Virus record (IMG/VR): IMGVR_UViG_2681813271_000005
Length of the DNA stretch: 8,718 nucleotides
Source of the DNA: a virus
Lineage: Duplodnaviria; Heunggongvirae; Uroviricota; Caudoviricetes
Strand: one strand, 5' to 3'
Below are positions 1,225 to 4,600 of the stretch, piece after piece; position 1 is the stretch's first letter; the number at the start of each line of letters is the position of its first letter. The notes beneath the pieces were generated by a model. That model was not told the DNA's origin and ran no database searches. It saw nothing but the letters and a program-made list of their open reading frames with translations. The position numbers and the translations under genes are program-made.

Positions 1225-1628
1225 TGAAAAATCTACATAATGAAGTAATGAGTATTATTCAGTACTCAATTGATAACCCATATAAGTATGGTGATAACGA
1301 TTGCAACATTATAGTACTACGCCTTATTGATTTAATTAATGGTACTACACAGTTAACTAATCGCCAGTATTCGAGCATTAAAGAAGGTATAGCAGGTTTA
1401 AACAAGGAAGGATGGAACCATACAGGGGAAATTGTTGAAGCGTACTGTAAGCCAGTACAAGCCACTATAGACGGTGATATCTGGTTAGATCCTGACAACC
1501 CATTAATTATGGCAGTAGTGGCATCTGGTCGGGTACTTGGAGTAAATGCTGATCATGATGGTTTCGAACTTCAACCAAAACCAACAGAGGGAACATATTA
1601 CAGAGTAAGGAAACAGAGAGATGGGTAA
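1224..1628 (+). CDS. Tail assembly protein, gpK-like or gpI N-domain-like; assignment uncertain
   Basis: 134-aa ORF that overlaps the downstream gene by 8 nt (ATGGGTAA at 1621-1628). It contains Cys and His residues ([22 protein letters not shown]) that could form an NlpC/P60-like triad, but it is shorter than lambda K (199 aa). Positional assignment only. Confidence 0.4.
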
Positions 1629-4600
1629 GAGTTTAGGGGGCTTTTTTGGAGCCATAATTACGGCAGTTGTCGTCGCGGCTGCTGTGTACTTTTCAGGAGG
1701 TACAGCATTAGCAGCAATAGGTTGGGGTGCAGCAGCCGGATCTTTGTCATTAGTTGCAAGTTCTATGTTAGGTCAAATCGGGGTTTCTGGATACGGTGAT
1801 GTAGCAGACTCACTAAGTAGAAGTACTTCACCAACTACTGGATTACCCGTTATATACGGTGGAGAACTACCACATAAAAATGGTGTATCAGGCGGTTCCT
1901 TCATCCTAACCGGAAGCATAGTAGCCTGGTACAACGTACCAAATTCTGATTCTCAGTACTTATTCTCAGAACAGGCTGTAGCATATGCTGGTGTAGAAAA
2001 GCATATCGAGCAAATCTATATTGATAATGAGCCAGTACTTGCAGTACCGATTACAGCAGAGGGTGTAGTACCTAAAGAAAGTATTGCAGCGAAGTACCAG
2101 AACTATTTGCAATTAGAAGTACGATTTGGTGGTGACTATACGAGTACTAAAACTCTTGCTGCAAAATATGCTGGTTCGAAATGGACAAATAAATTTCTTG
2201 GTAAGGGTATTGTTAGTATCAGTACCGTTATCTTAAAAACTCAAGATTCATTAGAAAATAATATTCTTGTTAATGATCAATTCGCTTTAACTGTAGAAAT
2301 GAAAGGGCAGGTGATTTATGATTTTGTTGATGGTACTTATAAAGCAAGTAGTAACCCTCCTTCAATTATCTATGATTACTTAACAAATTCAATCTATGGT
2401 ATGGGTATTGATCCATCATTGATTAATACCGATACGTTTGCAGAAACCGCAGCATATTGTGATGCTTTTGAATATTATGCTAATGGTGCTATCAGTTATC
2501 AAAAAACCTATAAAGATAATATTGAAAATATCTGTCAGTCATTTGGCGGCATCATGTATGTACATGCCGGACAAATCTGTATTACCACAGACCGCAAATC
2601 GGTATCCGTAGCCTCATTTGATGAGCGTAACATGGTAGGGGCGGTACAGGTTTCTACTTCTGGCGGTACTGACTACTTCAACGTAGTCGATTGCAAGTTT
2701 ACTAACCCTGAATCGATGTACACCACTGACGTAGTACGTATCCCTTCCGATATCACTACGGATGAAGCAGTACAGCATGATGGACAGGTCATAGCATTAT
2801 CACGCGATTACTCATGGTCATATGATCAAGAGGTGATTGCAAAAATGGCTAACGTTGATGTACTCAAGGCTAAGTATGCCCTGCGTACTATCAGCTTCAC
2901 CACAAGTGAAGGTTGGGATCTCGAAGTATGGGATGCGATCAATGTCAGCAATGAAGAACTCGCTATCTCAGGCAAATTTAAAGTACTCAATAAAGATATC
3001 AGCACCGATCAAGAGAACGTTGGCTATGTAACCATCACGGCAGTAGAAGCACCTGATGCAATGTATGATGGTATTGATCCGGGTATCTGGTCGCCTGGTG
3101 GGGTAATTAACTTCCCTGAACTACAGGTACTACCGCCAACGAACCTACAGGCAGTACGTAAGGGGAATACTACTTCTGGTTCAATCGTGGATCTTACCTG
3201 GGATGCTTCACCAGATCCGTATCTGCGTGGGTACTATGTTTACTACCGTCTTAACGGTTCCAGTACCTGGACGTATGCGGGGCAGACTGGCGTACAGAAG
3301 CTTGATTATGAATTATTTGGATTGTCTGATACTGCAAGCTACGACTTTTCGGTAGAGGCTTACAACAACTTAGGGCTGGTATCCAAGAAGCTTTCCCTAA
3401 CTGGCATTGTTCCAACATTCAACTTTGCACTACCTGCGGTAACGCGTGTAGTACTGACAAATAAAACAGAATCAGCGTATGTAACTGACTCACCAGATTT
3501 CAATATTGCCTGGGATTCACAAAAAGATATCAGAGTGAATAACCGATCATTTAGTGAGTACTTCAAGTATTACGTTATTAAAATCTATGACGGTACTAAA
3601 TTAGTAGATACATTCTATACGCAAAGTAATGCCTTTAATTTCACTCTTGAAATGAACCGTCTGAAAGTACGTAAGCCTACCATTGGTATTATCGCACAGG
3701 GATTTAATGATGGTACATATTCAGAGGAAGTGAAAATAACCGTAGAGAATAAACAGTGTGGTTTAGTAGAGGATGTTAGCTTTACGGGTGGTTTTGGTAA
3801 TTTGTTTGCTTCATGGACTAAATCTACTGAACGTGATTATGCAGGTGCGATTATCAGTATTGTTAATGGTACTAATACACGTATATTCACCAGTTATGCA
3901 CCTGAATTTGATTCAATACCAAACATCACTGATGGTGAGTATAAGGTTAAGATGGGATTCTTTGATGTGTTTGGTACTGATGATATTCAATATTGTCCAG
4001 AACAAACAATCAGTATCAACTCCAAGTACCAGTTTACCGAAGATGATGCAGAGGCAATTAACGGGATTCTTGATTTAGAAGATCGCCTGACTGGTACCAT
4101 TAATGATGCGGTCAAAATTGCCAATAAGAATACCAGTACTGTTATCAGTGCATCAGAGGCACGTACCAATGATAAAATCACTGCCAGTGAGAAAACGTTA
4201 AGTACTCAGATCACTGGGGTAAATAGTTCCTTATCACAGAAACTTAGCACCGTTGAAAGTACTGCCAATGGTAACAAGGCCAGTATCCAGACACTATCCC
4301 AGACGGTAACGGATAACAACAAAGCTCAGACTACAGCAGTCTCACAGCTACGTAGTGATGTGAATGGACAGATTGCCACTGTTAACCAGTCAATGAGTAC
4401 TAAAGCCGATAAATCTACTGTAGATGCTCAGTACTCACTATCAGTACAGGCTAATGGCACGGTAGCTGGTATGCGTCTTGTTGCGAGTAGTGGAACGAGT
4501 AACAACTCAGCAATCTATTTCGCTGCGAACAAGTTCATAGTCTCCGGTACTGACACTGCTACTGTAGGTGGTACTGCACCATTTGCCATAGTCAACGGTA

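Follow-up and report, generated by a model that had tools for sequence, protein, structure and literature searches.

The lumen of the phage lambda tail tip is closed by the C-terminal half of the tail assembly protein gpI (residues 101-223), which comprises two predicted transmembrane helices (H1 and H2), a plug (159-175) and strands that are threaded through the hub domains of gpJ, and whose trimer blocks the lumen under the C-terminus of the tape-measure protein (PMC11101478, PMC10721106, PMC12617516). Once LamB is bound, the plug becomes looser, and it has been proposed that the helices then move into the outer membrane (PMC11101478, PMC10721106, PMC12617516). In phage T5, the plug changes its fold and becomes inserted in the outer membrane (PMC10038345). 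Iyer, Burroughs and Aravind (2006) described gpI, under the name TAPI, as a ubiquitin-like domain followed by a Gly-rich region and a small C-terminal domain, and noted TAPI-TAPJ fusions (PMC1779556). Here, an 1100-amino acid (aa), gpJ-like open reading frame (ORF) at positions 1621-4923 of the Caudoviricetes virus record IMGVR_UViG_2681813271_000005 is compared with these systems, with attention to its N-terminus, in which an earlier note made from the sequence had seen a gpI-like segment. The window refers to the whole 8,718-nucleotide (nt) stretch that was analysed.

Among other described tips, the large "megatron" proteins of RcGTA (g15) and roseophage R4C have a hydrophobic iris or penetration domain at the N-terminus, with three N-terminal helices that close the tail channel of the assembled trimer; formation of an outer-membrane pore by this domain has been proposed. 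Both proteins are encoded in the order distal tail protein (Dit), hub, a peptidase of ~150 aa, and megatron (PMC7296036, PMC10276861). In Aeromonas phage Avs-1, hub protein gp23's N-terminal region forms a lumenal tripod, like that of lambda gpI, under the tape-measure C-terminus (PMC13612043). The ORF at 1621-4923 probably encodes a gpJ-like hub and central-fibre protein whose first ~105 residues are a homologue of the C-terminal half of gpI, in a natural and common arrangement (Dit, hub, DUF6950, and a megatron-like protein joining the gpI C-terminal part to J) as found in RcGTA, R4C, Avs-1 and many marine phages.

The N-terminus of the J-like protein and lambda gpI

The ORF belongs with the gpJ and baseplate hub proteins, having a Phage-tail_3 domain and a hub fold followed by FN3 and central-fibre domains. 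It matches the Pfam models Phage-tail_3 (PF13550), fn3 and Phage_Tail_Tip (PF09327), as well as phrog_31, "central tail fiber J" (E=1.6e-61), and it is related to lambda gpJ by BLASTP (E=5e-6) and by family profile (E=6e-32). In an AlphaFold2 (AF2) monomer model of residues 1-520 (predicted TM-score 0.73), a hub fold is predicted with confidence beginning near residue 75. Foldseek matched this model to T5 pb3 (E=1.4e-21, TM 0.62), lambda gpJ (~1e-18) and the RcGTA megatron (5e-14), in addition to the hubs of Chi, T1 and JBD30 and the body of the R4C protein (2e-5). The predicted fold of residues ~75-480 thus matches those of T5 pb3, lambda gpJ and the RcGTA megatron.

Residues 1-110 (nt 1621-1950) start with a Gly/Ala-rich, hydrophobic stretch and continue into an LPVIYG strand, which confirms what the earlier note had read at the start of this ORF. 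There is one charged residue among residues 1-55, and the highest 19-residue Kyte-Doolittle mean is 2.18. The segment is divided as follows:

1630..1782, + strand: Gly/Ala-rich hydrophobic helices, residues 4-54, counterpart of gpI H1/H2 (lambda ~98-146), placed by hhalign, hydropathy and AF2
1783..1839, + strand: polar linker, residues 55-73, at the position of the lambda gpI plug/linker and the T5 pb3 plug, placed by hhalign and HMMER alignment
1840..1860, + strand: GLPVIYG strand, residues 74-80, matching lambda gpI 188-194 (VLPVLYG) and T5 pb3 263-269 (FIPVVYG) in HMMER alignments; AF2 strand at 77-79 with a predicted local distance difference test score (pLDDT) of ~70
1864..1902, + strand: 13-residue insertion, residues 82-94, between the PVIYG strand and the following strand, placed by the alignment of the window's family
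1903..1938, + strand: second strand (ILTGSIVAW), residues 95-106, counterpart of gpI RVGSRVVSQ and the last stretch alignable with gpI (hhalign, 6-106 on gpI 100-207; AF2 strand at 95-102)

AF2 places helices, at low confidence, at residues 9-24, 30-35 and 44-51. From its position, the linker may act like the plug and linker of gpI. In an alignment of 63 J-like proteins, Pro76 and Gly80 of the strand are among only five invariant positions in 520 residues, and Tyr79 is nearly invariant. The insertion at 82-94 is confined to the enterobacterial family of the window itself; T5 pb3, lambda gpI and the J-like proteins of four distant phages (DCP80, henriette, CRP-701 and HTVC202P) have a gap there.

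The gpI sequence of lambda (NC_001416) carries both features that the earlier note had assigned to its C-terminal half, the hydrophobic segment (GGVFQIVLGAAAIAGSFFTAGATLAAWGAAIGAGG...) and the LPVLYGE motif (...VLPVLYGEMRVGS). The Pfam model Lambda_tail_I (PF06805) matches lambda gpI at 14-97 only (E=1e-28), that is, the N-domain, and the C-terminal half has no curated Pfam or PHROG model. Scans of J-like residues 1-120 against Pfam, PHROG and NCBIfam matched no model, a result that counts against a relationship to gpI, yet is uninformative, because PF06805 covers the gpI N-domain only. A direct BLASTP comparison of the window N-terminus with gpI was not significant either (E=0.14). Since this comparison failed and no curated profile existed, custom profiles were needed.

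A tblastn search of 50,697 phage records recovered only distant relatives at ~27% identity, namely Escherichia phage DCP80, Vibrio phage henriette 12B8, Roseobacter phage CRP-701 and Pelagibacter phage HTVC202P, the J-like proteins of which all open with a hydrophobic segment followed by (L/I)PV(V/I)YG-x-R-x-GG. DCP80 serves as a bridge: its VLPLVYGEQRVGSIAV aligns with VLPVLYGEMRVGSRVV of gpI (BLASTP E=2e-5), and its N-terminus aligns with that of the window protein (E=4e-11). Profile A2 was built from ten fused-type N-termini without lambda sequences, and was compared with a gpI C-half family of ten cleaned sequences; a protein search with the gpI C-terminal half, whose best 120 matches were close enterobacterial gpI only, fed this gpI family and gave no fused forms. 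A protein search with A2, covering at most 8000 candidates, was dominated by truncated pelagiphage J-like fragments, and is no test of gpI.

The hhalign comparison of A2 with the gpI C-half family gave a probability of 94-95% (P 4e-8 to 1.6e-7, score 45-48), aligning window residues 6-82 with gpI 100-196 so that the first hydrophobic helix and the LPV(I/L)YG strand occur in the same order. Against the real score of 48.1, the highest control scores were 22.8 (200 column shuffles), 25.4 (200 shuffles within 12-column blocks) and 16.4 (reversed profile). A broad profile of 61 sequences extended the hhalign match with gpI to window residues 6-106 on gpI 100-207 (P=8.8e-7), and the window's family alone matched gpI over the helical part (P=1.6e-7, score 45.7, as compared with a maximum of 31.7 in 150 local-block shuffles). 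When A2 was searched with hmmsearch against 177,635 distinct PDB chain sequences, three matches were found at E<=10, each of them a "Tail tip assembly protein I" chain from lambda or Ur-lambda; the lowest E-value was 0.028 (profile 6-91 on gpI 98-203). Taken together, hhalign and the PDB search provide the profile match between residues 1-110 and the gpI C-terminal domain that had been suggested as a check.

Several results weigh against this reading, in addition to the two just described. At the level of HMMER the support is borderline, if the PDB value of E=0.028 is taken alone. When 1.84 billion representative proteins were searched exhaustively by HMMER with the fused-type module profile A3 (E<=1e-3), no lambda-type gpI was among the best 150 matches, which were fused-type proteins only. 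Profiles A2 and A4 recovered no RcGTA or R4C chains by sequence, the bodies of these proteins being matched by fold only. Window residues 111-141 are collinear with residues 21-54 of the single lambda gpJ sequence, but at only P=0.03 (hhalign), and the chief basis for collinearity across the lambda I/J boundary is therefore the alignment with T5 pb3 together with those of the fused family. The AF2 model, in which residues 1-72 have a pLDDT below 50, lends no support to a location in the lumen, and the likely roles in plugging and membrane insertion are drawn wholly from analogy with the lambda, T5 and RcGTA tips.

The same BLASTP and HMMER values, and the lack of gpI among the best 150 matches, could be explained if the window protein had a generic glycine-zipper or transmembrane N-terminus that resembles gpI by convergent composition and not by descent, with the PVIYG strand simply being part of the J/hub domain. 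Gly/Ala-rich hydrophobic segments align easily, the N-termini of RcGTA and R4C have no detectable sequence similarity, and the non-hydrophobic beta-hairpin plug that T5 has at the same place indicates that the region is evolutionarily plastic. Convergence is nevertheless improbable, as the signal is order-specific and far above all the composition-preserving controls, including the 12-column-block shuffles; the helices and strand follow the order of gpI at similar spacing; gpI chains are the sole PDB matches of A2; and a helix start of the form GG-hydrophobic-F is found in both the window protein and gpI. The window segment has the make-up described for the C-terminal part of TAPI, i.e., Gly-rich hydrophobic helices followed by C-terminal strands with an LPVLYGE-like motif. 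These data support the homology of J-like residues ~4-106 to the virion-incorporated C-terminal half of lambda gpI, as judged from sequence comparison.

The sequence K-S-(x)-G-G stands directly before the first hydrophobic helix in both proteins, as MGKSLGG/FFGA in the window (1630-1650) and AGAKSGG/VFQI in lambda gpI (residues 96-103). In lambda, this is the point where the ubiquitin-like domain ends and JAB cleavage is predicted (PMC1779556); the J-like protein of the window begins essentially there.

Gene boundaries and the upstream DUF6950 gene

The tail-tip module of the window consists of four ORFs on the + strand (44-601, 601-1224, 1224-1628 and 1621-4923), with the following features:

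44..601, + strand: distal tail protein (Dit, T5 pb9-like), first tail-tip gene (phrog_1302 "distal tail protein", E=7.9e-17; weak match to Pfam DTP-pb9_B-dom)
601..1224, + strand: hub N-terminal part at the gpL position, counterpart of the T5 pb3 HDI region and RcGTA hub g13 (phrog_2048 tail protein, E=7.7e-24)
1224..1628, + strand: 134-aa DUF6950 protein at the gpK / RcGTA g14 position, with an invariant G..DC motif (PF22262; phrog_2134)
1607..1611, + strand: Shine-Dalgarno-like AAGGA, 9 nt 5' of the J-like start codon (read from the sequence)
1621..4923, + strand: 1100-aa gpJ-like, baseplate-hub-plus-central-fibre ("megatron-like") protein with a gpI-C-like N-terminus fused to it (Pfam, PHROG, BLASTP, AF2 and Foldseek)
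2500..2964, + strand: Phage-tail_3 domain, J-like residues 294-448 (PF13550, E=2.1e-6)
4399..4677, + strand: Phage_Tail_Tip (central straight fibre) region, J-like residues 927-1019 (PF09327, E=4.8e-20; C-terminal matches to PDB 9ze4_N and T1 9l9p_S)

Genes in the position of ORF 601-1224 in henriette and DCP80 match PF09931, "Baseplate hub protein N-terminal attachment domain".

The 134-aa ORF (1224-1628; stop codon TAA at 1626-1628) overlaps the J-like ORF by 8 nt (ATGGGTAA) in a different frame, as is directly visible and as the earlier note had reported. In the J frame, a TAA at 1606-1608 lies 4 codons before the ATG at 1621 and blocks upstream extension, and no other start lies between that stop and this ATG. 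In assemblies of Escherichia, Salmonella, Shigella and Citrobacter, the homologues (58-88% identity) all share this starting point and open with MG..GG(F/I)(F/L)GA. In the two relatives with enough context, L006 (64%) and L007 (58%), a DUF6950 gene is followed directly by the J-like gene through a junction that differs from case to case: an overlap of 34 nt in L006, a TAATG overlap in L007, and ATGGGTAA in the window. The last is an ordinary translational-coupling overlap, and DUF6950 and the J-like protein are encoded by two genes coupled in translation. A separate I gene would not fit between the 134-aa and J-like ORFs, a layout that the relatives share; DCP80, henriette, CRP-701 and HTVC202P likewise lack a separate I gene. 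In place of a stand-alone gene of ~200-220 aa between K and J, the gpI-like module is contained in residues 1-106 of the 1100-aa ORF.

A sequencing or assembly frameshift near 1621-1628 could in principle imitate such a fusion, either by hiding a real, separate I gene or by misjoining the 134-aa and J-like ORFs. The 8-nt overlap in different frames is what would draw suspicion, and a run of 316 Ns elsewhere in the window indicates that the assembly is imperfect. On the other hand, the relatives at 64% and 58% identity keep both genes with different junctions, every homologue opens with MG..GG(F/I)(F/L)GA, and the ATG is preceded by the TAA 4 codons 5' and by AAGGA at -9, leaving no space for a further gene. 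A frameshift, which the earlier note had asked to be checked, has thus left no sign in the relatives' junctions, the upstream in-frame stop or the start site; it has almost no probability as an explanation, and is effectively refuted. A programmed frameshift joining DUF6950 to J was also considered, and was dropped because no common slippery heptamer exists at the differing junctions of the three relatives. In L007 (706-2854, Salmonella assembly GCA_024546045.1), gene calling divides the J-like gene into two ORFs of 308 and 402 aa, which suggests a frameshift, pseudogene or assembly error in that relative.

The 134-aa ORF passes the Pfam threshold for DUF6950 (PF22262), scoring 34.6 bits where 27 are required (E=2.3e-8), as do the proteins in the same slot of CRP-701 (76 bits) and henriette (34.6 bits). 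The family always lies in the gpK/g14 slot, as in henriette (L003), L004, L006 and L007. Across five diverse phages, the invariant positions are Gly23, Asp26, Cys27, Tyr49 and Asp83, which include the G..DC motif. BLASTP of the ORF against gpI and gpK gave no identification. The best hhalign alignment to gpK sets G..DC on the catalytic-Cys motif of NlpC/P60, HGVTDC, and is non-significant (P=0.25). No relatives were found in the PDB by sequence or profile searches, and the single-sequence AF2 model is unusable (pLDDT 38.8). A search of one literature library returned no paper mentioning DUF6950. Judged by the motif and the position of its gene, the DUF6950 protein may be a papain-like tail-tip peptidase or an assembly factor.

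It had been suggested that the 134-aa ORF is the N-terminal domain of a split gpI, that is, the ubiquitin-like domain detached from a C-terminal half that has become joined to J. The ORF lies directly 5' of the J-like ORF and is of similar size (134 aa, compared with ~97 aa for the domain), and the module has no other counterpart of the gpI N-domain. However, its DUF6950 match is above threshold, and PF06805, the model of gpI 14-97, has no match at E<=0.1 in the 134-aa ORF, in the J-like protein or in the first 120 residues of the latter. Furthermore, comparison with the gpI N-domain gave no BLASTP similarity and an hhalign probability of 1.4% against a 27-sequence N-domain alignment, the G..DC motif is placed on HGVTDC of gpK by the best, though non-significant, alignment, and DUF6950 occupies the gpK/g14 slot of henriette and CRP-701. 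The split is therefore very improbable, and the suggestion did not survive these comparisons.

No Pfam match to Prok-JAB or NLPC_P60 occurs anywhere in the window module, whereas lambda gpK matches both; instead of a gpK-type neighbour with JAB (MPN) and NlpC/P60 domains, there is an upstream ORF that matches DUF6950 only. By profile search, both the ubiquitin-like domain of lambda gpI and the JAB domain of gpK are absent from the module. The natural I-J fusion that the earlier note had offered as its other option holds for the C-terminal half of gpI, where homology and a genuine fused ORF support it, and not for the ubiquitin-like N-domain (PF06805), which is lacking.

Comparison with T5, lambda and the megatron proteins

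Among solved structures, T5 pb3 (PDB 7ZHJ and others) is the nearest relative by sequence as well as by fold. Residues 262-898 of pb3 are matched by the J-family profile (E=3e-70) in an alignment that opens at the conserved motif (agIPViYGerkvGG in the profile, KFIPVVYGVQKIPG at pb3 262), and the profile of the gpL-position family (A6, ORF 601-1224) matches pb3 37-179 at E=8.3e-9. Because the two profiles match these two parts of pb3, ORFs 601-1224 and 1621-4923 are equal to a pb3 that has been split in the plug region. In pb3, the plug, which closes the tube, lies directly N-terminal of the same strand; its tip is 233-LFGL-236, just upstream of it (PMC10038345). Unlike the window, T5 uses a single chain, in which HDI, the plug and HDII-IV are together, whereas the DUF6950 gene separates the two corresponding ORFs of the window, and the T5 plug refolds to a beta-hairpin with the LFGL tip where the window protein has Gly/Ala-rich helices.

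The three layouts can be written side by side:

T5: HDI - plug - IPVVYG - body, in one chain
Window: HDI-like ORF / DUF6950 / hydrophobic helices - LPVIYG - body
Lambda: gpL / gpK (JAB and NlpC/P60) / gpI (ubiquitin-like domain - helices - plug - LPVLYG strands) / gpJ

According to the sequence alignments, the J-like protein's N-terminal region is collinear with lambda gpJ preceded by the C-terminal half of gpI, and with T5 pb3 starting at ~262. That the lambda I/J boundary cuts a segment which is continuous in most relatives accounts for the binding of gpI to gpJ by beta-sheet augmentation. Possibly, though this is doubtful, the window's lineage keeps an intermediate between the single-chain pb3 of T5 and the L/K/I/J split of lambda, in which the helices are tethered to J, the ubiquitin-like and JAB pair is absent, and a Cys-containing DUF6950 protein replaces gpK as an assembly factor or peptidase.

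The C-terminal half of lambda gpI (~98-223; PDB 8IYK, 8IYL, 8K35 and 8XCG, chain I) shares with the window protein the GG-hydrophobic-F start, the two Gly/Ala-rich helices and the polar linker, then a (V/G)LPV(L/I)YG strand and an xGS(R/I)VV strand. It differs in being part of a separate 223-aa protein with the PF06805 ubiquitin-like N-domain, which the window lacks, whereas the window module is covalently joined to the J-like body. The last ~16 residues of gpI and the first ~20 of gpJ have no counterpart in the window; conversely, the window protein has the 13-residue insertion after the YG strand, and its linker is ~20 residues long as compared with ~40 in lambda.

RcGTA g15 (PDB 6TBA) and R4C gp16 (8GTC) resemble the window protein in that a single chain joins a J-like body to a helical, hydrophobic N-terminal segment, and in the gene order of Dit, hub, a protein of ~130-150 aa and the large protein; their bodies fold like that of the window (Foldseek E=5e-14 and 2e-5). 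The iris domain of the megatron (residues 1-46) is shorter than the window segment, and the g14 slot is filled in the window by DUF6950 and not by a recognised peptidase. Avs-1 gp23, likened here from its published description, also has a gpI-like element inside a J-like polypeptide (PMC13612043). The TAPI-TAPJ fusions of 2006 are a different case, as TAPI was defined by the ubiquitin-like domain that the window lacks (PMC1779556).

In the exhaustive search with A3, 229 clusters at 50% identity matched the module, and at least 57 of them (57 of the 139 new representatives listed) are proteins of 450-1805 aa that match at their extreme N-terminus. Shorter representatives run on into the J-like body, and are thus truncated gene calls and not stand-alone I proteins. 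The fused layout is a common, natural and normal variant, neither a one-off nor an artefact. Other phages and gene transfer agents are already known to have the fused form, which is not a new mode of tail building; the four-gene split of lambda is one arrangement among several. The earlier note's expectation of a change in tail-tip assembly is therefore overstated, since fused layouts are widespread and already described (PMC1779556, PMC7296036, PMC10276861, PMC13612043).

Proposed mechanism, neighbouring genes and implications

By analogy with the described tips, the following model could be drawn for a trimeric tip: (i) the PVIYG strand and the one that follows it (residues 74-106) would be integral strands of the hub domains, the lambda equivalents of which reach gpJ in trans through beta-sheet augmentation; (ii) the hydrophobic helices and linker (residues 4-73) would most likely turn back into the lumen and lie beneath the tape-measure C-terminus as a plug or "iris"; and (iii) receptor-triggered opening of the hub would free the helices and linker for insertion into the outer membrane, and so aid formation of the channel through which DNA exits. 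In this phage, the plug/iris segment would stay permanently tethered to the hub.

Alternatively, the N-terminus might be a signal-anchor for assembly only, which tethers the J-like protein to the inner membrane and is then removed, leaving no plug in the virion. A hydrophobic N-terminal segment with a short polar head (MGKS) has the look of such an anchor, and AF2 gives no confident docked position. This explanation is nonetheless quite unlikely, given that the homologous residues 101-223 of lambda gpI are resolved inside the virion tip (PMC11101478) and that the fused N-terminus is in the lumen in RcGTA, R4C and Avs-1.

Directly 3' of the J-like gene, two ORFs encode conserved phage proteins (5081-5377, + strand, phrog_7961, E=9e-16; and 5379-6035, + strand, phrog_4524, E=1.6e-54), the products of which are candidates, from their position, for accessory proteins associated with the fibre or with receptor binding. 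The 90-aa product of 6092-6364 (+ strand), which has a hydrophobic segment at its N-terminus as well as a coiled coil, gives a weak Rz-like spanin match (phrog_739, E=2.7e-5), and its gene adjoins, in convergent orientation, a gene for a 149-aa phage lysozyme (6403-6852, - strand; PF00959, E=1e-11; phrog_13211, E=2e-39) on the strand opposite to the tail genes. Just 3' of these lysis genes, a SegE-like GIY-YIG homing endonuclease is encoded (6889-7323, + strand; PF19835, E=2e-16), which is probably a mobile insertion. The run of 316 Ns (8250-8565), either a masked stretch or an assembly gap, lies inside a mechanically called ORF (8216-8620) that is not to be trusted.

Megablast of the window against the 50,697 phage records gave no match. 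Of 5,426 complete E. coli genomes, a single one matches, over 625 bp of the J C-terminus only and at 75% identity. Fragmentary homologues occur in Salmonella, Shigella and Citrobacter assemblies, including a truncated 180-aa copy on a 4.8-Mb Citrobacter koseri contig. The lineage of this phage is poorly sampled.

For annotation, these results mean that the first ~105 residues of such proteins, commonly called "host specificity protein J" or "fibronectin type III domain-containing", should be named as a gpI-C or plug-penetration module. This module currently has no curated Pfam or PHROG model, and Pfam does not cover it because PF06805 models the ubiquitin-like N-domain of gpI only. The joint absence of the ubiquitin-like and JAB domains fits the 2006 prediction that they are a functional pair, accessory to the core plug. 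These findings leave the current view of tail-tip assembly as it was. If, however, DUF6950 were a new tail-tip enzyme or chaperone and the tethered helices did form the outer-membrane channel, this phage would offer a simpler genetic model than lambda for the conversion of plug to pore in siphophages.

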